Of a DNA stretch of 64,000 nt, positions 2,889 through 23,981 are shown piece by piece (within the stretch, counting starts at the first letter, position 1; every line of letters begins with the position of its first letter). The DNA is from Escherichia coli. Its GTDB lineage: Bacteria > Pseudomonadota > Gammaproteobacteria > Enterobacterales > Enterobacteriaceae. Location: the NCBI RefSeq assembly GCF_030013595.1, contig NZ_CP122768.1; one strand, 5' to 3'. The translations under genes and the position numbers were made by a program. The notes below the pieces were generated by a model. The model saw only the letters and a program-made list of their open reading frames with translations, was not told the DNA's origin and searched no databases.

Positions 2889-14769
<11,881 letters not shown>

Positions 14770-15051: not shown

Positions 15052-16572
15052 ATGTCTTCTCATCCGTATGTCACCCAGCAAAATACCCCGCTGGCGGACG
15101 ATACCACTCTGATGTCCACTACCGATCTGCAAAGCTATATCACTCATGCTAATGACACTTTTGTGCAGGTGAGCGGCTATACCTTGCAAGAGTTACAAGG
15201 TCAACCGCACAACATGGTGCGTCACCCGGATATGCCAAAAGCGGCGTTTGCGGATATGTGGTTCACCCTGAAAAAAGGGGAGCCCTGGAGCGGCATCGTG
15301 AAAAATCGCCGCAAAAATGGCGACCATTATTGGGTGCGGGCCAATGCGGTACCGATGGTGCGCGAGGGAAAAATCAGTGGCTATATGTCGATTCGCACCC
15401 GGGCGACGGATGAAGAGATCGCGGCGGTGGAGCCGCTGTACAAAGCGTTGAACGCCGGACGTACCAGTAAGCGTATTCATAAAGGCCTGGTGGTGCGTAA
15501 AGGCTGGCTGGGTAAACTGCCTTCATTACCGCTTCGCTGGCGGGCGCGTGGCGTGATGACCCTGATGTTTATCTTGCTGGCGGTCATGCTTTGGTTTGTT
15601 GCTGCCCCGGTGGTGACGTATATCCTCTGTGCGTTAGTGGTATTGTTGGCAAGCGCCTGTTTTGAATGGCAGATTGTCCGCCCGATAGAAAATGTCGCCC
15701 GTCAGGCACTGAAGGTGGCGACCGGAGAGCGTAATAGTGTTGAGCATCTGAATCGCAGCGATGAGCTGGGGCTGACATTACGCGCGGTAGGGCAGCTTGG
15801 CCTGATGTGCCGTTGGCTAATTAACGATGTCTCAAGCCAGGTGTCCAGTGTCAGAAACGGCAGTGAGACGCTGGCGAAAGGCACCGATGAACTGAACGAA
15901 CATACCCAGCAGACAGTTGATAACGTTCAGCAAACGGTGGCGACCATGAACCAAATGGCGGCGTCGGTGAAACAGAACTCTGCCACGGCGTCGGCTGCCG
16001 ATAAACTTTCTATCACTGCCAGTAATGCGGCAGTGCAGGGCGGGGAGGCGATGACCACGGTGATCAAGACAATGGACGATATCGCCGACAGTACCCAGCG
16101 CATTGGCACCATTACTTCGCTGATTAACGATATTGCGTTTCAGACCAATATTCTGGCCCTGAATGCGGCGGTGGAAGCGGCACGAGCCGGCGAACAAGGC
16201 AAAGGTTTTGCAGTGGTGGCAGGGGAAGTGCGTCATTTAGCCAGCCGCAGCGCCAATGCTGCCAACGATATTCGCAAGCTGATTGATGCCAGTGCTGATA
16301 AGGTGCAATCCGGTTCGCAGCAGGTACACGCAGCCGGACGGACGATGGAAGATATTGTGGCACAGGTGAAAAACGTCACCCAGTTGATCGCCCAGATTAG
16401 CCATTCAACGCTGGAACAGGCCGATGGGCTTTCCAGCCTGACCCGTGCAGTGGATGAGCTTAACCTCATCACCCAGAAAAATGCCGAGCTGGTGGAAGAG
16501 AGTGCGCAGGTGTCGGCGATGGTGAAACACCGCGCCAGCCGACTGGAAGACGCGGTGACGGTGCTGCATTAA
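15052..16572 (+). CDS. aer: Aerotaxis receptor Aer (506 aa)
   Basis: PAS domain N-terminus, central TM hairpin, HAMP and methyl-accepting signalling domain. Confidence 0.9.
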
Positions 16573-16611
16573 TCGATATGCCGGATCCGGTGTTTGATAC
16601 ACGATGGCTGA

Positions 16612-16645
16612 TGCGATGCTGGCGCATCTTATCAGGCCTACGGGG
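16612..16645. repeat. REP element between aer and yqjI
   Basis: gatgcgatgctggcgcatcttatcaggcctac is a classic REP palindrome. Confidence 0.55.
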
Positions 16646-16677
16646 GGGTAGGGCACGCCACATCCGGCAATCGGTGA

Positions 16678-17301
16678 TTAATCCAGTTGCGTAATATCAA
16701 AAGCGGCGCGGTCGATCACCGCAATGATCTTTTTTATTTGTGCATCAGTGATATCGCTCTGGTTGACGCGTAAATCCAGCACCGCTTTAAAATTATCCAG
16801 CGCCCGCTTCATTTGCGGGTTCTGGCGGAGTGCAGCACCAACGCAACGCGCTTTGATGCGTTCTTCGATCATCTCCACCTGTTCGCGGTTTTCTTCCAGC
16901 CACTGCGCGCCCTGTTCGGTCAACGCAATCTGCTTCTTACCACCTTCCTCTTCGCGGATGGTAATCAGCGACTGCTCCTGCAGAAAATCCAGCGTCGGGT
17001 AGATGACACCCGGGCTTGGGGTGTAATTCCCCTGGGTTAGATTCTCAATCGCTTTAATCAATTCGTAACCGTGGCTGTCATCGCGCGAGAGAATATCCAG
17101 AATCACCAGACGCAATTCACCGTGACCAAAGAAACGCTGCCGACGACCGCCGCCGCGACCGTGGCGACCACCGCAGCATTGACCGTGTTCATGCTGGTGA
17201 CCGTGTCCGCAGTGCTCATGTTCTGACTTCTCACCTTTGCAGCAGCCTTCATGGCGTGGCTGGCCTTCATGTTTACAACACCCTTCGTGATGATGGCTCA
17301 T
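16678..17301 (-). CDS. yqjI: PadR-family transcriptional repressor YqjI (207 aa)
   Basis: His/Cys-rich N-terminus (MSHHHEGCCKHEGQPRHEGCC...) followed by PadR-like winged helix; divergent from yqjH. Confidence 0.85.
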   Translation of the reverse strand: MSHHHEGCCKHEGQPRHEGCCKGEKSEHEHCGHGHQHEHGQCCGGRHGRGGGRRQRFFGHGELRLVILDILSRDDSHGYELIKAIENLTQGNYTPSPGVIYPTLDFLQEQSLITIREEEGGKKQIALTEQGAQWLEENREQVEMIEERIKARCVGAALRQNPQMKRALDNFKAVLDLRVNQSDITDAQIKKIIAVIDRAAFDITQLD

Positions 17302-17577
17302 ATCAGCCTCCTTTTGCTTAATTAGATATATCTAATTTATGTCTAATATGAGCGCTTTTGCAAGTATAAAAATGATTTTTAAACGTGAATACACCTCACA
17401 TCCAGGCCGGATAATTCGTTCACGCCGTATCCAACAGCCTTGCTACGACGCTGAATGTCTTCTCATACTTCAGATATATCAGTTCTACAAATCGCTTGCA
17501 TTTATCATGATTAACAATCATTATCATTTGCGAAATTTATTTAGATATATCTGATTACTATCACGAAGGCGATAACA
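17302..17577. promoter_or_regulatory. yqjI/yqjH divergent control region with palindromic operators and Fur-box-like element
   Basis: Palindromes ttagatatatctaa (~17322-17336) and tttagatatatctga (~17540-17554); gattaacaatcattatc (~17508-17524) resembles a Fur box. Confidence 0.45.
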
Positions 17578-18342
17578 ATGAATAACTCCCCCCGCTACCC
17601 GCAGCGCGTTCGCAATGATCTGCGCTTCCGTGAATTGACTGTGCTACGCGCTGAGCGTATTAGCGCCGGTTTTCAGCGCATTGTCCTTGGCGGCGAGGCG
17701 CTGGACGGTTTTACATCGCGCGGCTTTGACGATCACAGCAAACTCTTCTTTCCTCAATCTGATGCTCACTTTGTGCCGCCAACGGTAACGGAAGAGGGCA
17801 TCGTCTGGCCGGAAGGACCACGCCCACCGTCGCGTGACTATACGCCGCTGTATGACGAACTACGCCATGAACTGGCGATTGATTTCTTTATTCACGACGG
17901 TGGCGTCGCCAGCGGCTGGGCGATGCAGGCGCAACCGGGCGATAAACTCACGGTGGCAGGTCCGCGCGGTTCGCTGGTGGTGCCAGAGGATTACGCGTAT
18001 CAGCTGTATGTCTGCGATGAATCCGGAATGCCCGCACTGCGCCGCCGCCTGGAAACGTTGAGCAAACTTGCCGTTAAACCGCAAGTTAGCGCGCTGGTTA
18101 GCGTGCGGGATAACGCCTGTCAGGATTATCTCGCGCACCTTGATGGTTTTAATATCGAATGGCTGGCACATGATGAGCAGGCAGTAGATGCGCGTCTGGC
18201 GCAGATGCAAATCCCTGCCGATGATTACTTCATCTGGATAACCGGCGAAGGCAAAGTCGTTAAGAATTTAAGCCGCCGCTTTGAAGCGGAACAGTATGAT
18301 CCACAGCGGGTACGTGCAGCGGCTTACTGGCACGCAAAGTAA
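17578..18342 (+). CDS. yqjH: Siderophore-interacting ferric reductase YqjH/NfeF (254 aa)
   Basis: Full ORF MNNSPRYPQRVRNDLRFRELTVLRAERISAGF...; FAD-binding siderophore-interacting protein family. Confidence 0.85.
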   Translation: MNNSPRYPQRVRNDLRFRELTVLRAERISAGFQRIVLGGEALDGFTSRGFDDHSKLFFPQSDAHFVPPTVTEEGIVWPEGPRPPSRDYTPLYDELRHELAIDFFIHDGGVASGWAMQAQPGDKLTVAGPRGSLVVPEDYAYQLYVCDESGMPALRRRLETLSKLAVKPQVSALVSVRDNACQDYLAHLDGFNIEWLAHDEQAVDARLAQMQIPADDYFIWITGEGKVVKNLSRRFEAEQYDPQRVRAAAYWHAK

Positions 18343-18355
18343 CTGATATATAAAA

Positions 18356-18390
18356 AGAAAAAGGCTGACGATTTCTCGTCAGCCTTTGCT
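18356..18390 (+). terminator. Rho-independent terminator of yqjH
   Basis: aggctgacga-tttc-tcgtcagcct hairpin followed by T-rich tract immediately after the yqjH stop. Confidence 0.6.
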
Positions 18391-18825
18391 ATGTCTGGCC
18401 CTGCTGTCTCTTAATTGGTTGTGTAATTAATTGAAATTAAACAGGTAAATGCAATTTATTTTTTATCGATATGCCTTTTTGTATGCCTATTGGGAAAAAC
18501 ACGCTTTCTTCAACAGGGAATAAAAGCCGCTTTTATGGTGTTTTGAAACGGGTTTTAAAATGGCGCTCGTGGTGCTCTCGGGCACTCAATGGCGCTCTGT
18601 GATGTGGCTGGTGGTATGTGGCCGCCATGCATAATGGGGCTGATTTTGTTCATGGCCCGGCAGCGGGTGAGCATTTTTTACCATATTCAGGGTAAAAATG
18701 GGCGAAAAAGTTCATTTCTGGCATGGCCTGAAATGCCACGCAGCCCGCGCCGCGTGTGCTCTTGCCGGGGAAAACGGCGCGGAATAATGACCGCCACCCC
18801 ACCTTATGGCGGGCAGTCCCACGAA

Positions 18826-18905
18826 ATCCCGGTTATTTCCGTTTATTCCCGGATTAATCCCGCCTTCTCCCGCATTCTCCCGGCTGTTCCCGGAATTAAT
18901 CGCCG
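18826..18905. repeat. Iteron-like array of ~7 units (TCCCGG/TCCCGC, 10-11 bp period)
   Basis: aaatcccggttatttccgtttattcccggattaatcccgccttctcccgcattctcccggctgttcccggaattaat. Confidence 0.4.
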
Positions 18906-18916
18906 TGGGGTGGTGG

Positions 18917-19207
18917 TTATCTGGTGTGGTCGTAGTTCTGCCGTAGTCGTTCACCCTCAGCGCAATGACGCGGTTTTTTAACGCCGCTGGTAACGCAACG
19001 CGGGCAGGTCATGACGTGGCTGATATACGCATCACGGGCAGCCAGCCACGTCGCTGACGGGGCGCACATATCCGCCAGCGCCTGGCCGTTGCTGGTGGTG
19101 TTGTCTTCCGGCCATGTTTCGGGCTGGTGCGCTTCCGGTAAATCCGGTGCAGGTAATGCCCGGATAAACTCACACAATGCATCCGGCAGGCTGAATAACT
19201 TATGCAT
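18917..19207 (-). pseudogene. Probable remnant of a rep/helicase-like gene (96-aa ORF)
   Basis: Shares a ~40-nt segment (acatatccgccagcgYctggccgttgctg) and peptide motif SNGQ(A/T)LADM with the intact helicase gene at 20446-20490; no RBS. Confidence 0.3.
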
Positions 19208-19629
19208 AAATCTGATGTTCTGAATCGCTGAAAACGTGCGTTTTATGGCGTTTTTTCGTGATTTCTGCGTGTTCTGATGTGCTCATTTCGCTGTATCCCT
19301 TGTGTGGCGCGGGCTGCGCGTGTGTTTCGGTGTTCTTTTTTACCGCCAGAAAACGGTAATCAGGCATATAAACACGGCTGTAAGCCGCGCCGCGTCTGGC
19401 TTCGCGTGATTTTGTGCGTCAAAAAGTGCATTTTTGCCCTTAAAAAGCGTTATTCGTAATTCACTGGTAAATGCTCCGCAGGCCGCGCCATTGCTGGCCT
19501 TTTCGCTATTCTGTGTGGTTTTGCTGTTTAACCCGTTTTGCACACTAAAATTGCCTTGCATCCCGCGCCACGTAAGGGATTGCCGGGTTTTTATGTTGCG
19601 TTTTTTGCCGTGCGTAATATTGTGCAAGT

Positions 19630-19875
19630 TGGTGGGACTGGTGGGAACTGTGGGAACCGCCTAGAACCACGCGGCTTTCAGTGGTTCCCACCAGTTCCCA
19701 CGTTGGCTTTTTGTGGGAACCGTGGCGGTTATTTTTTGTTCTTTGCGGTTCCCACCAGTTCCCGCAGAGTTCCCACTCAAAAACGAACAATAATCATACT
19801 GATGGTTTTATTATTTACTGATTTATATATGTTTTATTTTTACGGTTCCCACAGTTCCCACCAGTCCCACCACTT
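19630..19875. repeat. Putative origin of replication: at least 11 GTTCCCAC/GTGGGAAC octamer iterons in both orientations flanking an AT-rich stretch
   Basis: Octamers at 19631, 19640, 19649, 19683, 19693, 19712, 19747, 19757, 19768, 19844, 19853; AT-rich tract 19776-19840; immediately downstream of the helicase gene. Confidence 0.6.
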
Positions 19876-19906
19876 TTTCAGTTTTTAAAAACGCAATTTT
19901 TGTGAA

Positions 19907-21745
19907 TTATTCATCAATTGCGAATAACAATGCATTCTGGCCGATGGCGTAAACGCGGTGTTTCTCCCCGTTAACGGAAACGCGTTTTGTGTATCGGCGT
20001 TTCCCGTCCGTGTCGCGGTCAACAATCGCGCCAGCATCGTCAAGACTGGCCGCTATGCGTTTCAGGTCGTAGCCGCTGGCCGCCTCACATAGTGCTTCCG
20101 GTAAAAACCAGTAAACCCGCTCGCCGTTGCTCCCCGGTCGCCACCATCCGGCGCGGGTGCTTACTGGTTCGCTGTATGTGCTGCCCCCTTCAAAGCGTGA
20201 AGCATGGCGGGCGATAAACCCCGCGACGGCCCGGAGTATTTTCACGTCCTCCGATTGCCCCCGCCCACGATAGTCCGCCCACGCATCAAACATCGCTTTC
20301 ACTGCCTCCAGTGCTTCGCCCTGTTTCCACGGCAGAATCCCGGCAGTTATCGCCATTTCCCCGGCCAGTGCGCACAGTGTGAAACGCGCGGCGGCGCGTG
20401 CCTCCTGTCCGGTGCTTACGGGGAATTGTTCGCGCAGTATGGCGTACATATCCGCCAGCGTCTGGCCGTTGCTGTCGGTGCTGGTGGTGTCACTTTCATT
20501 GCGGGAAATCAGCCAGCGCACAAACTCCGGCCCGGCGTGGCCGTAATGGGTAGCCGCATTACCGCGCAGTGTTTCGGCAAATTTCCGGCCTGCTCCCCGG
20601 CGTTCTGTGTCGTTGTCGGGGTTGTGGGGTAGTGCCATTCCGTGAAGACAGTCAAATGCCCCGTAAAGCCGCTGTGCCGGAATATCCAGTAACCGCATTT
20701 CCTGCCCGGCCTTGATGCGCTGGCCGCCGCTTTCCATGTGTTTACCCACGGTCATTTCCCCGGTGGAAATAATCATGGTGCGCCATGTGTTGACCGGGCG
20801 GGCCATGCCGGACACCTTGCCACGCTGACGGCCTGTTCCGTTGCCAAGCTGATAAATCAGCCCGCCAATATCTCTGGCCGGGGCTTCGCCAATTTCATCC
20901 AGTATCAGCGCGGTATCGTTCCGCATGGTTGCCAGCCCTTCAAGCCCGGTGCTGGTGGCGTTCCAGTTGCGTTTAAAGTTGCGGGGTTCTCCCCATACGC
21001 TACAGGCCACCAGCGCCCCCACGCTTTTCCCGCTGGAACTGTCGCCCATGAAATGAAATCCGCCGCTGTCCACATCAAGCAACCACAGCAACGGCCCGGC
21101 GAGCGATGCACACACGGCCAGCATGGTTACCGGGTTTCCCCGGCATAATGCGGCCACGTTGTCGCGCCAGCCCTCCGGCGTTCCTGCGGTGGCGTACTCC
21201 TGTGAGCCTGCTTCTGTTGACTGAAACACCACATCACCATCACCGATAACCCCGCCCGGCATGACAAACAGGGCCGGGGAGTGCCACCCGGTGGCCGTGG
21301 CCGCGAGCGCCCGGCGTTTTGGTGCTGACTCCATGATGTATTCAGTCAGTGCCTGCCGTTGTTTGTAGGGAATGGTAACGCCCATGCGTAGCAGTTCCTG
21401 CCGGAGTTCTCCGCCGTCTCCGGCGAGCATTTCCATCGGTGCGGCCCATTCCCGCCACTGGCCTGACGGCGTGAGAAAACGGAGTAATCGCCCGTAGTTT
21501 TCGTCTTTGCTGTCGCTGGTCATGGCGATGACCTCCAGCGGGGAACATATAAACGTGTCTGTGTTGGTTGAGTCGCGCACGCCGTGCCAGTAAAGGCCGG
21601 GTTTCAGTATCTGGCCGCCGTCCACCTGTACATGCTGCGAATAAGTGGCGTAGCCCGGACGCGCCGGGCTGACTTTGGGGTGTTTCTTGCGTGGTGGTTT
21701 TCTCTTCCCGGATGTGACCGGGGTTTTAGTGGTTGTCCGGGTCAT
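19907..21745 (-). CDS. Replicative helicase, P4-alpha-like/SF3-type (612 aa)
   Basis: Walker A (GDSSSGKS) and Walker B (ALILDEIGE) motifs; overlaps primase stop by 20 nt; followed by iteron origin. Confidence 0.75.
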   Translation of the reverse strand: MTRTTTKTPVTSGKRKPPRKKHPKVSPARPGYATYSQHVQVDGGQILKPGLYWHGVRDSTNTDTFICSPLEVIAMTSDSKDENYGRLLRFLTPSGQWREWAAPMEMLAGDGGELRQELLRMGVTIPYKQRQALTEYIMESAPKRRALAATATGWHSPALFVMPGGVIGDGDVVFQSTEAGSQEYATAGTPEGWRDNVAALCRGNPVTMLAVCASLAGPLLWLLDVDSGGFHFMGDSSSGKSVGALVACSVWGEPRNFKRNWNATSTGLEGLATMRNDTALILDEIGEAPARDIGGLIYQLGNGTGRQRGKVSGMARPVNTWRTMIISTGEMTVGKHMESGGQRIKAGQEMRLLDIPAQRLYGAFDCLHGMALPHNPDNDTERRGAGRKFAETLRGNAATHYGHAGPEFVRWLISRNESDTTSTDSNGQTLADMYAILREQFPVSTGQEARAAARFTLCALAGEMAITAGILPWKQGEALEAVKAMFDAWADYRGRGQSEDVKILRAVAGFIARHASRFEGGSTYSEPVSTRAGWWRPGSNGERVYWFLPEALCEAASGYDLKRIAASLDDAGAIVDRDTDGKRRYTKRVSVNGEKHRVYAIGQNALLFAIDE

Positions 21746-22769
21746 GCTCCATTTCCCATAGCATCAAATCGTTAAAGTCGGAAAGGTCTGGTGATGCACC
21801 GGGCGGCCATTCCGGGAATGTGACGTAACACCCGGCCAGCAATGCGGCTTCGTTGGCTGCTCTGGAACCGGGGTTATCTTTTGATGCCCGGTCATCATCC
21901 CCGGCGATAACGAGAGATATGCGCGAGCCGTATCGCTCACGCAGCGCCATAGCCACATGTTTAAGGTTTCCCGCATTCATGGCACACACCACGGCCATGA
22001 CGTTCCAGTACTGGAGAAGGGCGGCCCCGGTGGCCCACCCCTCACACACGTAAACGTCATGTTCCGGCGCTTCCGGGGCCATCAGGTCAAAGCTCCCCAT
22101 AACATGGAAAGCCCCCTGCACCTGACCATCACGGAGAAACATTTTTCGACCGTCCGGGCTGATAATCTGCACGTTCACCACTTCGCCGCATACGTTGTAC
22201 AGCGGGACAAGCAAATCATTACCTGACTGATACAGATTGCCGGGCTGTAGCCGTTTTTTCATGAGATAGGGATGAGAAGGGTTTGCCACCTCCGCCCGGC
22301 CAAGCAACTCAAAGGCCCGGCAGGCGGTCAGTTTCTGGCGCTGGTGGCGCTGTTGCTGTTCCCGCTGGCGGAGTCTGGCCGCCTCCTGTTCTGCGGCCTG
22401 TACCCGCACCCGTTGCGCCTCCCGTTGTTCGCGGGTCATTACATCAGGTTTGCCCAGCGCGGGCAGGCACAGCCCCAGCCTGTCCGCCACAATACGGGCG
22501 GCATCAGTCTGCCGCACATTCCATAAATAAGCCCCCAGCGCCACAAGGTCGCCGCCGCTGTCCCCGGTGGCGAAGTCGTGCCAGCATCCGTCCACCAGCG
22601 AGACGGAAAAACTGCCCGCGTGACGGTCTGCACGCGTGGGGTTACGACACACCCATTCAGTGGCCTGCCGTTTACCTTCGGGCAGCCATTCGGGAACAAG
22701 GATTTCTGCATGTTGTGCCGCCACTGCGGCAACGCTACGGATTGCGTTAATCGTGGCTATGTCACGCAT
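21726..22769 (-). CDS. DNA primase with zinc-binding and TOPRIM domains (about 347 aa from MRDIATIN start)
   Basis: Zn-binding region C..HAGSFSV..GCWHDFATGDSGGDLVALGA; TOPRIM motifs VYVCEGWATG and LVIAGDDD; start chosen at ATG 22769 overlapping upstream stop (ATGCGTGA); longest ORF extends to 22919. Confidence 0.7.
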   Translation of the reverse strand: MRDIATINAIRSVAAVAAQHAEILVPEWLPEGKRQATEWVCRNPTRADRHAGSFSVSLVDGCWHDFATGDSGGDLVALGAYLWNVRQTDAARIVADRLGLCLPALGKPDVMTREQREAQRVRVQAAEQEAARLRQREQQQRHQRQKLTACRAFELLGRAEVANPSHPYLMKKRLQPGNLYQSGNDLLVPLYNVCGEVVNVQIISPDGRKMFLRDGQVQGAFHVMGSFDLMAPEAPEHDVYVCEGWATGAALLQYWNVMAVVCAMNAGNLKHVAMALRERYGSRISLVIAGDDDRASKDNPGSRAANEAALLAGCYVTFPEWPPGASPDLSDFNDLMLWEMEHDPDNH

Positions 22770-23076
22770 GTTGCCCGTCCTCCCTGATTTCCCCGGTGCG
22801 GCAGCGCCAGTTATACGCCTCCACAACCTCACTGAATCCGGCCACAAGTTCAGCCGTAACAGCGATGGAATCGCCCAGGCTGCGTAGTTCATTTGGACCA
22901 AGAGCATTATTGTCGCCAATTACCGAAAGTAGCCGCCCTGTGCCAGCCAGCGCATCAAGCAGTTTGCGGGCGCAGTAATCCGCATCATCAAACATTGCGC
23001 GGGCTTCCTGTGCGTCTGCGTTTTTGATGGCCGCAACCAGTAGTTCAGGTATCCGGGTGTTATACATATCACGCAT
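22762..23076 (-). CDS. Hypothetical small protein (104 aa)
   Basis: ORF MRDMYNTRIPELLVAAIKNADAQEARAMFDD...; start overlaps upstream stop and stop overlaps primase start via identical CATGCGTGA junctions. Confidence 0.5.
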   Translation of the reverse strand: MRDMYNTRIPELLVAAIKNADAQEARAMFDDADYCARKLLDALAGTGRLLSVIGDNNALGPNELRSLGDSIAVTAELVAGFSEVVEAYNWRCRTGEIREDGQHA

Positions 23077-23365
23077 GGCTTACCTCCCCGGCCTGCTGGT
23101 CGTAACACTCCATCAGTTCGGCCATACAGCCAATGAGGGCAGGGGCTGTCTGTAGAAATCCGGCTAACTGGCAGATCTCGTCTCTGGAATAGGTGATGGG
23201 GTTTTCGCGTAACTGGCTTTCCTCCAGTGCCTTACCAACAAAGGCAATCCCCGCAAGTAAATTCACTCTGTGCCAGTCTGCATCAACGCGCAGACTCCAG
23301 CGGCTTTCTTCGTCCGGCATACTGCTCATGGCGGCTTTCATTGACTCACGCAGACAATCACGCAT
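23069..23365 (-). CDS. Hypothetical small protein (98 aa, start at internal Met MRDCLRES)
   Basis: ORF linked to neighbours by the same CATGCGTGA stop/start overlap; longest ORF extends to 23446. Confidence 0.45.
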   Translation of the reverse strand: MRDCLRESMKAAMSSMPDEESRWSLRVDADWHRVNLLAGIAFVGKALEESQLRENPITYSRDEICQLAGFLQTAPALIGCMAELMECYDQQAGEVSHA

Positions 23366-23555
23366 GACGCACCCCCTGAGCCGGAACGCGGCCAGCAAAC
23401 AGCAACACAAAATCACGCGCCAGCATACGGCGGGCGGTTGTTTCATCGGGTGCGTTGACGGATTCGCGGTGTGGGCGGTCGTTCAGGTCGGAACGGCGAA
23501 CAGCCAGAAAGTGAAAGGTAAATTCAGGGTGTAACGGGGTTGGGGTCGTAGCCAT
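23358..23555 (-). CDS. Hypothetical small protein (65 aa)
   Basis: Strong Shine-Dalgarno AAGGAGG 8 nt upstream of ATG at 23555; the longer 201-aa ORF has junk-like composition upstream of this Met. Confidence 0.5.
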   Translation of the reverse strand: MATTPTPLHPEFTFHFLAVRRSDLNDRPHRESVNAPDETTARRMLARDFVLLFAGRVPAQGVRHA

Positions 23556-23582
23556 TCTGGCAGCCTCCTTTTGCAAATTTAA

Positions 23583-23621
23583 GGAGTCACCGCCTGAGTT
23601 CCTACACTCATAAGGGGCGGT
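23583..23621. promoter_or_regulatory. Inverted repeat GTCACCGCC-N21-GGCGGTGAC upstream of the small-gene operon (candidate operator or 5' hairpin)
   Basis: Perfect 9-bp inverted repeat 26-70 nt upstream of the 23555 start codon. Confidence 0.3.
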
Positions 23622-23744
23622 GACGCTGGCAGGGGTAGGAATACCGGCGCAAAAGGAAACCGGCCAGCCTTTCGGCTGCCCCACCAGCGCCACCATAGAT
23701 ACAGTGCGGGTCTTGCCGCTGTGCATGGGTGCGCGATGGCACGA

Positions 23745-23775
23745 CACAAAAAAAGACGCTGGGCGCGTCTGTGTC
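23745..23775 (-). terminator. Rho-independent terminator downstream of alpA
   Basis: Minus-strand agacgcgcccagcgtct hairpin followed by TTTTTTT. Confidence 0.45.
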
Positions 23776-23981
23776 GCCTTTTGCTCATTAAACGGGTTCC
23801 TACGCCCGGCTGGTGGATTTACACCAGCGGGGGAAATATAACGCCCACCAGCGATGGCAGGCAAGCAATATTTGCGGTTGCCGCCCATCCCGTGGGGCGT
23901 GTGGTGGTTGTTTTGGGCGTGAGAACGCCCCGGCCCTGTTACGGGCCTTTCTGGCATTTTCATAATGATTATCGCGGTTGG

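Follow-up and report, generated by a model that had tools for sequence, protein, structure and literature searches.

A helically phased CGGGA array in the distal module of a small Escherichia coli island and its possible relation to the packaging site of Mu-like phages

Introduction

Several described systems come close to the locus considered here, nt 18420-19620 of a 64,000-nt window of the Escherichia coli chromosome (the window being the whole stretch of DNA that was analysed), which covers everything from the replication origin (ori) of an integrative island to its attR end and includes a helically phased array of CGGGA units. Among satellites, the Vibrio phage-inducible chromosomal minimalist islands (PICMI) and the phage-inducible chromosomal island (PICI) EcCICFT073 are described as having no capsid-remodelling genes and as being packaged as multimers in full-size heads (PMC10803314; PMC6092414). 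The latter paper also names a Mu-like phage as the helper of the Pasteurella PICI PmCI172, which encodes a capsid homologue and makes small capsids (Fillol-Salom et al., 2018; PMC6092414). Among repeat arrays, the operators of 186 Apl and P2 Cox, which are bound by a small winged-helix protein, consist of five to seven direct repeats with a core of about 6 bp and a period of 10-11 bp, extend over about 50-70 bp and include degenerate members. P4 crr and P1 incA are direct repeats that are similar to the ori iteron and lie downstream of the rep gene and the ori; P4, the closest regulatory relative of the island, needs a distant crr. The packaging (pac) site of phage Mu has reportedly been mapped, in work of 1985 and 1990, to the phage's left end, where (C/T)GGGA units stand in 10-bp phase.

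The island resembles PICMI and EcCICFT073 in that it is small, carries int, alpA, a primase-type replicon and an ori, and has no structural or terminase genes, and a cis packaging signal would therefore be needed. It differs from them in its Toprim and DUF927 proteins, in its C4-RNA immunity, in the Mor/C-type activators of its relatives and in its presumed helper, and it is not known to have been mobilised in any experiment. With P4 and P1 it shares a C4 RNA, icd and AlpA/Vis-like regulation. PmCI172 sets a precedent for a Mu-like phage that mobilises a chromosomal island, but the island considered here has no capsid genes.

The typical attributes of a satellite are present, namely an integrase at one end, an AlpA-type regulator, its own primase/helicase, an iteron ori, a size within the ~8-15 kb class and a tRNA-type att site. 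There are no capsid or terminase genes, and no island open reading frame (ORF) has a Pfam or PHROG match to packaging or capsid-redirection functions (sid, psu and delta of P4; terS, ppi, rpp and cpm of PICIs). Because such matches are lacking, the island is not a canonical P4-like element or PICI, and by gene content it is closest to the 'minimalist' satellites. Judged by comparison with its relatives, the region at 18420-19620 is the distal, mostly cis-acting module of this phage-satellite-like island. An earlier note on the same DNA had proposed either the remains of a second related replicon with a rep fragment or a noncoding regulatory or packaging region. The former proposal is abandoned here, because the 96-codon gene ORF96 is intact, the array is uncoupled from ori and Rep, and no Rep, Mor or single-stranded-DNA-binding protein (SSB) remnant is found by tblastn; the latter is supported in outline, as the array, the leader of ORF96 and the att-proximal motifs behave as conserved cis elements at the island end (Table 1).

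The Phased Array and Its Counterparts in Related Islands

The periodic TCCCGG/TCCCGC array already pointed out in the earlier note is real and consists of six exact hexamers and two or three degenerate units with a period of 10-11 bp. On the plus strand the exact hexamers start at 18827, 18847, 18858, 18868, 18878 and 18888, and the degenerate units are TTCCGT at about 18837, GTCCCAC at 18817-18823 and, possibly, TCGCCG at 18900; neighbouring units are 10-11 or 20 bp apart. Six exact hexamers on the same strand therefore lie within 67 bp, against a background of about one per 1.5 kb per strand, and because the two strands of the 64 kb together contain TCCCGS just 85 times, this phased grouping is far beyond chance. 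A 16-nt inverted repeat (I21; 18787-18802 / 18905-18920) brackets the array.

Positional homologues of the array are located downstream of ORF96 in 12 relatives (designated below by L numbers), in which they begin 0-110 nt past the stop codon. The units are sCGGGA, seven or eight times, in the islands of E. coli and E. albertii; CGGGA four times and CGGGT three times in the Lelliottia group; CGGGA/T three times, followed by GGAATC four or five times at 10- or 20-bp steps, in Salmonella L007, L017 and L028; and G(T/C)G(A/G)AATC four times in Salmonella L013 and L018. The motif GGTGGGG follows the array at a variable distance in relatives, and a GAATGATTT pair, GGTGGGG and TTTAAA repeats recur downstream of their arrays up to the island end. 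In strain NCCP 13963 (L005) the array is short by exactly one 10-bp unit, and in the other E. coli and E. albertii copies examined the number of units is constant despite 3-6% divergence around the array. In E. coli C311 (L021), a deletion between two Chi-containing direct repeats, GCTGGTGGT, equivalent to about 18615-19091, has removed the array together with the 3′ half of ORF96.

The array is, on these comparisons, uncoupled from the Rep protein and from the iteron specificity of the ori. Its consensus is sCGGGA and its period 10-11 bp, versus GTGGGAAC and 9 bp in the ori; one unit of eight is a true iteron variant (GTGGGAC), and the array of L006 has one perfect iteron. Helicase and ori are 92-96% identical between the window and L013/L018, in which the breakpoint lies inside the 3′ end of ORF96 and the arrays differ; one Rep/ori type occurs with three array types (window, L013/L018, L028). 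L028 combines ori iterons of the window type, GTGGGAAC, with arrays of the L007 type, and L007 and L017 combine GGGGACA iterons with CGGGA arrays. Because helicase/ori and array types recombine in this manner among relatives, the array is not constrained by Rep specificity. Similarly, both array types are found with each of two unrelated AlpA types (types 1 and 2, ~23% identity). A switch of array type coincides with a change in the final ~20 codons of ORF96, which include those for CVTS where the units are CGGGA and for CVTH where they are GTGAAATC, a co-variation that adjacency may explain.

L028 contains, at 5790-6110, the remnant of a second ORF96 C-terminus (IPRHCATGERLRRELDAQPWESGP*) directly before its L007-type arrays; the remnant lies downstream of an intact ORF97-Mor138 pair, and the intact ORF97 has no array. 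This remnant testifies to a shuffling of modules in which the breakpoint fell within ORF96.

By analogy, the generic mechanism for such a phased array would be that a small protein binds cooperatively to a single helical face, because its architecture matches that of the annotated Apl operators of phage 186. Other likenesses were considered and set aside. An RNA sponge for CsrA, built from GGA repeats, is rejected: GGA is missing from half of the L006 units and from three of four units in L013, a period of 10 bp speaks for DNA, and the z-scores of RNA folding are just about -2. In the case of P1 parS, the GTGAAAT of L013 is the same as box A inverted, but with a different arrangement, and the likeness is treated as a coincidence; the hexamers of P1 pac are not phased in the same way; and a resemblance to P2/P4 cos at 18760-18780 is not kept among close relatives.

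Similar Arrays at the Left Ends of Mu-Like Phages

Nucleotides 31-81 of Mu (AF083977) read CCGGGAggac, ATTGGAttat, TCGGGAtctg, ATGGGAttag and atttGGTGGGG, that is, four units at exact 10-bp steps (nt 31-66) followed by GGTGGGG (nt 75-81). The last four units of the island array (CCGGGA, ACGGAA, CCGGGA and GTGGGA) and the following GGTGGGG are colinear with this segment, the weak second unit included. D108 is nearly the same as Mu (GCGGGATTAG, compared with GCGGGATTAA in the island). In a Mu-like phage of Vibrio and in one of Pasteurella, nGGGA(T/A) recurs every 10 or 20 bp over roughly the first 75 nt from the left end, and the left end of the PmCI172 helper phage (MH238466) carries nGGGA(A/T) repeats spaced by 20 bp.

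Scanning of IMG/VR with the pattern CGGGA-N5, four times repeated, yielded more than 120 stretches, for which our rough estimate of the chance expectation in random sequence is ~0.1. Homologues of Mu A, B, Ner, Gam, Mor or C were detected by tblastn at 22 of 120 array loci; there the array is some 150-750 nt away from the end of the contig, with distances of about 150-200 nt recurring, and in every case it is directed inward to MuA. Among whole-contig matches, the array is less than 750 nt from the contig end in 11 of 22. With GGAATC, three times repeated, as the control array, Mu proteins were found at none of 77 loci (Fisher p ~8e-6, calculated by hand). In L045, for example, the array stands 165 nt from the contig start; a repressor comes next, and after it a transposase of the MuA type (phrog_310, E 8e-103) and a protein of the MuB type. 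The IMG/VR loci with a Mu-type array include L033, L037, L038, L045, L055, L072, L090, L092, L101, L107, L116 and L149.

A phased (C/T)GGGA array inside the left end, reading toward the transposase gene, thus appears from these sequences to be a general feature of Mu-like phages. At least four (C/T)GGGA units in 10-bp phase on one strand are found in the window array, in Mu and in Mu-like contigs, and GGTGGGG within about 15-20 nt after the array is found in the window (18803-18797) and in Mu; in both, the units read in the presumed direction of packaging. The island array differs from the left ends of Mu and D108 in having about eight units rather than four and in standing apart from any MuA site or phage end. 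Since neither a TG end nor a transposase site lies beside it, the island array is not a Mu end and would at most be a mimic of the internal part of one.

A Possible Packaging Site for a Mu-Like Helper

The array may be a cis-acting, pac-like packaging site for a Mu-like helper, an explanation that we favour over the others and consider plausible although short of probable. The excised island would replicate from its own ori, helper terminase would bind one face of the phased array, a cut would occur near the array, and a headful of island concatemer, about 4-5 copies, would be packaged in the reading direction of the array, toward attR. We infer that the YGGGA motif would be the pac determinant, that the island copy would be bound by the terminase of the helper and that the helper would be Mu-like.

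Several lines of evidence argue for this pac-like reading. The last four units of the array and the GGTGGGG are colinear with nt 31-81 of Mu; phased CGGGA arrays recur at Mu-like ends and the GGAATC control does not; the island lacks structural genes yet possesses a replicon of its own, which would be expected of a satellite that is packaged from concatemers; the array is not linked to Rep, ori or AlpA type; the excess of Chi sites described below suits DNA that passes through a linear, RecBCD-exposed stage; and PmCI172 gives a precedent of a Mu-like helper. The relatives, moreover, encode activators of the Mu C/Mor type. Most of them pair ORF96 with such a late activator, matching phrog_836/532 'late transcriptional activator' with E values of 1e-24 to 1e-29, and the copies in L028 and L002 are 40% (E 1e-25) and 31% (E 1e-18) identical to Mu C. 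The Mor-family gene precedes ORF96 in the islands of Lelliottia, Citrobacter, Enterobacter and Tenebrionibacter and in some of Salmonella, overlapping it by 4 nt in the Lelliottia/Citrobacter/Enterobacter type; it follows ORF96 in other Salmonella islands, lies two genes off on the opposite strand in L024, and is found about 1 kb further on, past perC, in the yicC-type islands of E. coli. Finally, L029 abuts Mu-like genes: at 5331-8775, the island ends right after ORF108 and meets oppositely oriented genes for a tape-measure protein and a Phage_Mu_Gp27-family protein.

A number of results weigh against the pac-like reading. In blastn searches, the region has no real similarity to phages (one 36-nt match, E 9e-3) and none to plasmids, and no relatives of the island were found in IMG/VR. 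Inspection revealed no TG end and no RCGAAAR-type or L1/L2 MuA-binding sites adjoining the island array. Local alignment of Mu nt 28-112 to the array scores 13 (z ~3.7), but another place in the window scores 14, and the similarity, which is short, is consequently not unique. In 98 of the 120 IMG/VR array loci no Mu protein was present in the DNA retrieved, and some of these arrays are like ori iterons or plain tandem repeats. No link to Mu was found for the Salmonella-type units (GTGAAATC or GGAATC), L024 and L027 have no array, and tblastn detects no Mor/C gene in the window's own island, which has lost it or never had it. Mu/D108-type prophages co-occur with the island in at least 2 of 31 genomes, from near-identical strains (ETEC1732 and ETEC1734 are examples of strains with both), against a baseline of 94 of 5426, a comparison that is uninformative. 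The reading also depends on the position of the Mu pac site, which has reportedly been mapped to about nt 32-58, between the transposase sites L1 and L2.

An extension of the pac-like reading to the family, possible but more doubtful, is that these islands are minimalist satellites of Mu-like phages, which have no structural genes, have their own ori and mostly a Mu C/Mor-type activator, and would be packaged as headfuls of concatemer from a mimic of Mu pac. The Mor/C-type activator of most members would possibly switch on the late genes of the helper, and the excess of Chi would protect and recombine the injected, terminally redundant linear DNA.

Alternative Explanations

The main competitor of a packaging site, somewhat unlikely on balance, is a regulatory operator on which a small DNA-binding protein would polymerise, head to tail on a single helical face, in the manner of 186 Apl, P2 Cox and lambda Xis; the binder would be ORF96, the Mor-type activator or a Cox/Apl/Xis-type protein of the helper, and the array would control transcription from ORF96 into the downstream gene or the switch between the integrated and induced states. 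With at least five direct repeats at a 10-11 bp period, the array resembles the Apl operators of phage 186, which comprise seven direct repeats in 68 bp at pR-pL and five at attP, with degenerate members. In L013 and L018 it occupies the ~130-bp gap between ORF96 and the Mor gene, a promoter-upstream position, and the basic Zn-knuckle C-terminus of ORF96 is modelled with high confidence. The core differs (TGGCAA in the operators, CGGGA in the island), however, and the island array is not at a known promoter or att core; no gene follows it in the window, L004, L006 or L009, and no sigma-70 consensus match was detected within 18300-19950. The change of array type with the 3′ end of ORF96 would be expected if ORF96 were the binder, but it rests on two events and may reflect adjacency, the arrays of L028 sit behind a mere remnant of their cognate ORF96 while the intact ORF97 is without an array, and AlpA type does not track array type. 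Neither a similarity of ORF96 to a DNA-binding fold, in a fold search of the PDB, nor a Cox/Apl homologue in the island was found. A second, weaker set of Rep-binding iterons, similar to P4 crr or P1 incA, that would aid or throttle the ori by looping, handcuffing or titration is a less likely explanation. The units, [GC][CT]GGGA, differ from GTGGGAAC mainly at one or two positions, and the array ends with a true GTGGGAC and, in L006, includes a perfect GTGGGAAC; the iterons of P1 incA are likewise downstream of repA, and L024, whose iterons are GGTTACC, has two isolated GGTTACC/GTAACCG copies downstream of its ORF. Against this, the uncoupling of array and replicon (the same helicase and ori with three array types, one array type with two iteron types) weakens a crr/incA-type reading, although the units resemble iteron derivatives. 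The substitution of C for T is, in addition, systematic (seven of eight units) rather than random decay, and the periods and consensus sequences of array and ori differ.

A functionless minisatellite, which arose in a noncoding tail when replication slipped on a 10-bp unit, would account for the 10-bp deletion in L005 and for the missing arrays of L024 and L027, but it is improbable: the spacers differ and the units are not identical copies, which makes recent slippage unlikely, the number of units is invariant in the other E. coli and E. albertii copies, and distant relatives keep the 10- or 20-bp phasing though their unit sequences differ. The reading to which the earlier note had given precedence, decayed remains of a second related replicon, is very improbable. 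A 43-nt segment that is 88% identical to the helicase gene, a short LPDALCE/LPEALCE peptide match (E 0.13) and the iteron-like repeats speak for it. However, ORF96 is intact and conserved across genera down to 47% identity, with a domain unrelated to the helicase; the segment shared with the helicase gene is limited to one subclade and a variable linker, and the helicase motif is present in all family helicases examined but that of L024, which points to transfer from helicase to ORF96; the region is preserved in 31 E. coli genomes at two integration sites; and no remnant of Rep, Mor or SSB was found by tblastn.

ORF96 and the Helicase-Like Patch

The 96-aa ORF listed in the earlier note is present on the minus strand, where the Prokaryotic Genome Annotation Pipeline (PGAP) labels it a hypothetical protein. 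Because it is conserved across genera and has its own invariant Zn-knuckle C-terminus, unrelated to the helicase, ORF96 is, as far as comparison can tell, an intact and convincing gene and not a rep fragment. When 5.8 billion proteins were searched, 17 relatives came up (E 1e-60 to 8e-17), which belong to E. coli, Salmonella, Lelliottia, Enterobacter and Citrobacter and to which genome scans add E. albertii and Tenebrionibacter; identity among homologues goes down to 47%, in five other genera. The alignment has 29 invariant columns, which are mostly W54, AARDAYISHxM, C68xxC71, VTxG, P79, H81C82, G85 and L88R89. In the AlphaFold2 model, residues 51-96 form a helix, a Zn knuckle and a helix (predicted local distance difference test, 79-94 as means of 10-residue blocks), and residues 23-41 are disordered. 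ORF96 belongs to no Pfam or PHROGs family, and its model has no PDB match by Foldseek (E<=0.001). No signs of decay, such as frameshifts, stops or loss of conservation, are seen in ORF96, which is intact in all E. coli copies except the ones that were hit by IS26 or a deletion.

In a profile search, the C-terminal domain of ORF96 was found in at least 130 representative clusters, often as the C-terminus of proteins of 150-270 aa. The pattern of this domain, W.ARD.Y..H.M.C..C...P.HC..G..LR, occurs in proteins P0018-P0144, often without a Pfam annotation. Relatives of ORF96 are absent from IMG/VR, no homologue was found in Mu and 11 Mu-like contigs, and species-representative genomes contain just two further carriers. 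In E. coli ETEC4090 (L022), an IS26-bounded segment with aph(3′)-Ia and aac(3)-IVa is inserted in ORF96 (6424-10012), and the island is thereby a carrier of resistance genes.

The segment of about 40 nt that was said to be common to ORF96 and the helicase gene is confirmed as repeat D3, 43 nt long. At the protein level, BLASTP aligns 14 residues (NTTSNGQALADMCA with STDSNGQTLADMYA) and a further, non-colinear match of seven residues, LPDALCE in ORF96 versus LPEALCE in the helicase (E 0.13); similarity to the primase or helicase that is both extended and colinear is not seen. The patch lies within the disordered, variable linker, is restricted to an E. coli/E. albertii/Salmonella subclade, and contains a Chi site (19091-19098); that of L013 is identical at 44 of 45 positions (97.8%) to 20446-20490 in the helicase gene of the window. 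The corresponding helicase motif, (D/N)GQTLADM(Y/F)A, is kept in 10 of the 11 family helicases examined, being missing in L024 alone, and is present also in islands whose ORF96 has no patch. Because the motif is conserved in 10 of 11 helicases and the patch is found in one ORF96 subclade only, transfer probably occurred from helicase to ORF96, and the simplest reading of the sequences is a short ectopic copy.

Noncoding DNA, the ORF96 Leader and Chi Sites

The statement of the earlier note that the region has no convincing ORFs holds for 18494-18916 and 19208-19629 but not for ORF96. The ORFs called elsewhere differ in frame and length between close relatives owing to a change in the length of a T run, the 10-bp indel of L005 shifts the frame of a 130-aa plus-strand ORF that spans the array, and these neighbouring, spurious ORFs match no Pfam or PHROGs family. 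All of the 1.1 kb nevertheless recurs, at 94-100% identity, in 31 complete E. coli genomes out of 5426, in which the island occupies two integration sites, ileX and yicC-dinD; distant blastn searches in E. coli retrieved the same 31 genomes. By tblastn, the window contains no remnant of Rep, no degraded Mor and no degraded N-terminus of SSB.

The conserved noncoding leader between ori and ORF96 is regarded as a regulatory region. A 12-nt motif, GGCGCGGSNTKC, occurs on the minus strand at 19380-91, 19478-89 and 19558-69 and on the plus strand at 19306-17; these four exact copies in the 1.2-kb region are among six in 64 kb. The leader also contains a 23-nt inverted repeat (19295-19317 / 19558-19580) and a block, 19371-19435, for which every distant relative shows 77-84% identity. 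In the distant relatives this block includes a perfect A/T-rich palindrome, GTGCATTTTT-N3-4-AAAAATGCAC, bordered by the ~25-nt motif GCCAGAC..GCGCGG..T.CAGCC in two or three copies, and a remnant of the palindrome is seen in the window at about 19418-19440. The leader RNA folds mildly better than shuffled sequences (z = -2.1), and an Rfam scan of 16000-28000 (E<=1) gave nothing credible in 18420-19620, the true matches being C4 RNA, isrK and tRNA elsewhere. A 21-nt stretch, CCTTGTGTGGCGCGGGyTkCG, is common to the leader (19298-19318) and to a terminator-like hairpin at 26640-26680, which is supplied by the island directly downstream of tRNA ileX.

It was considered that dispersed motifs of the region might be targets of the C4 RNA; this hypothesis was dropped because their common 8-mer is simply Chi, GCTGGTGG. 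Chi occurs in the island on the plus strand at 18607, 19091, 20480, 20951, 22340, 23809 and 23988 and on the minus strand at 21007, 22592, 23681, 23845 and 25492, and is about 7-fold enriched there on both strands, with 12 copies in 8.3 kb versus 11 in the other 55.7 kb. The relatives show a similar difference between the inside and the outside of the island (9/0 in L006, 11/1 in L009, 12/1 in L018, 18/2 in L002 and 11/3 in L004). The excess suggests a stage of life in which linear DNA would be exposed to RecBCD.

The Island, Its Ends and Its Relatives

In the window, which is E. coli chromosome with aer, nfeR and nfeF at the left and tRNA ileX, mug and rpoD at the right, the ~8.3-kb island lies between nfeF and tRNA ileX, at about 18400-26725. 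In island-free E. coli genomes, homology to the window begins at 26710-26713, the 3′ end of tRNA ileX, and CCCTGCTG is the best short match to the tRNA at 26713-26730. Every island gene is on the minus strand. The integrase gene is followed by a 296-aa ORF and then by an AlpA-type helix-turn-helix protein; after the C4 RNA come icd/ash-like ORFs and a pair of small ORFs, and then a Toprim primase and a DUF927 helicase (E 8e-83), which precede the iteron ori. The order of C4 RNA and icd/ash-like ORFs is that of P1 immI-type (c4-icd-ant) immunity, here in a small island, and relatives carry AntA, Bro-N or pRha antirepressor genes at this position.

Near attR, the repeats at 18468-18489 have a 91% identical copy at 26569-26590, beside int, and judged from this position at both ends are probably integrase arm-type sites. 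Repeats of this TATGCCT type are paired at both ends of the island and occur inverted at 26541-26548; yicC-type relatives have GTGTACATATGCGTGTAC near the island ends instead. The island-end block at 18520-18605 is 83-86% identical over 35 nt to L007/L017, and TTTAAA repeats near the island end are found also in L006, L009, L018, L024 and L028, from which we infer that this block would function in the recombination arm.

Table 1. Coordinates of the features of the island and of its distal region in the window
Feature	Position (nt)	Strand	Basis or remarks
attR core remnant TGGCCCTGCTG	18393-18405	-	Partial copy of tRNA ileX 3′ end; right island boundary
Probable integrase arm-type sites GATATGCCTT..TGTATGCCTA	18468-18489		Repeat family D13 and exact 10-mers
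Conserved island-end block cacagagcgccATTGAG ... ATTTTAAAAcccgTTTCAAAAcacc, with TTTAAA-type repeats ~11 bp apart	18520-18605	-	Relatives
Chi site GCTGGTGG	18607-18614	+	One of 12 in the 8.3-kb island
GGTGGGG motif after the array	18797-18803	-	L006, L007, L018 and Mu (nt 75-81) have equivalents behind their arrays
Helically phased direct-repeat array: CCGGGA, CCGGGA, GCGGGA, GCGGGA, CCGGGA, ACGGAA, CCGGGA, GTGGGA	18817-18905	-	10-11 bp steps
ORF96: N-terminal helix (LPDALCEFIR), disordered variable linker, C-terminal helix-Zn knuckle-helix	18917-19207	-	Homologues, alignment, AlphaFold2
Patch apparently copied from the helicase gene; encodes SNGQALADM in the ORF96 linker	19061-19103		D3, 88% identical to 20441-20483
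Conserved noncoding leader between ori and ORF96	19208-19629	-	D1, I4, relatives
Island replication origin: GTGGGAAC/GTGGGAC iterons, two inverted sets around an AT-rich core	19630-19872		Repeats I1, D7
C4 antisense RNA and isrK/a1b1 targets	23613-23841	-	Rfam, 79.6 and 60.7 bits
Integrase	25250-26524	-	Island gene

Besides the E. coli genomes mentioned above, this rare island family is found in E. albertii, Salmonella, Citrobacter, Enterobacter, Lelliottia and Tenebrionibacter. The distal cassette of larger relatives contains one or two tRNA-like genes (at about 7370-7670 in L002, L003 and L005, 10870-11070 in L007 and 6590-6760 in L028), which are annotated as tRNA-Tyr and 'tRNA-OTHER' and, in Salmonella, are accompanied by a TumE/HVO_A0114 gene pair. 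A perfect (GATGTGC)n heptamer tandem repeat of about seven copies lies at 11026-11070 of L006, in the Lelliottia chromosome flank beside the island end.

Implications

Regardless of whether the array is a pac site, what appeared to be a decayed tail is reclassified here as a conserved functional module. Within this module is a Zn-knuckle domain that is widespread (at least 130 representative clusters) and unannotated, and the islands to which it belongs show a striking enrichment of Chi. If the array is a mimic of pac, it would be, to our knowledge, the first cis packaging signal described for a satellite of an enterobacterial Mu-like phage, and the family would represent a second and much more reduced kind of Mu-dependent island after PmCI172. 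Such a mimic would also make testable, with simple constructs, both what Mu-type terminases recognise and how gene-poor satellites are packaged. If the satellite reading is true, the phased YGGGA array would be the conserved pac determinant of Mu-like phages generally.

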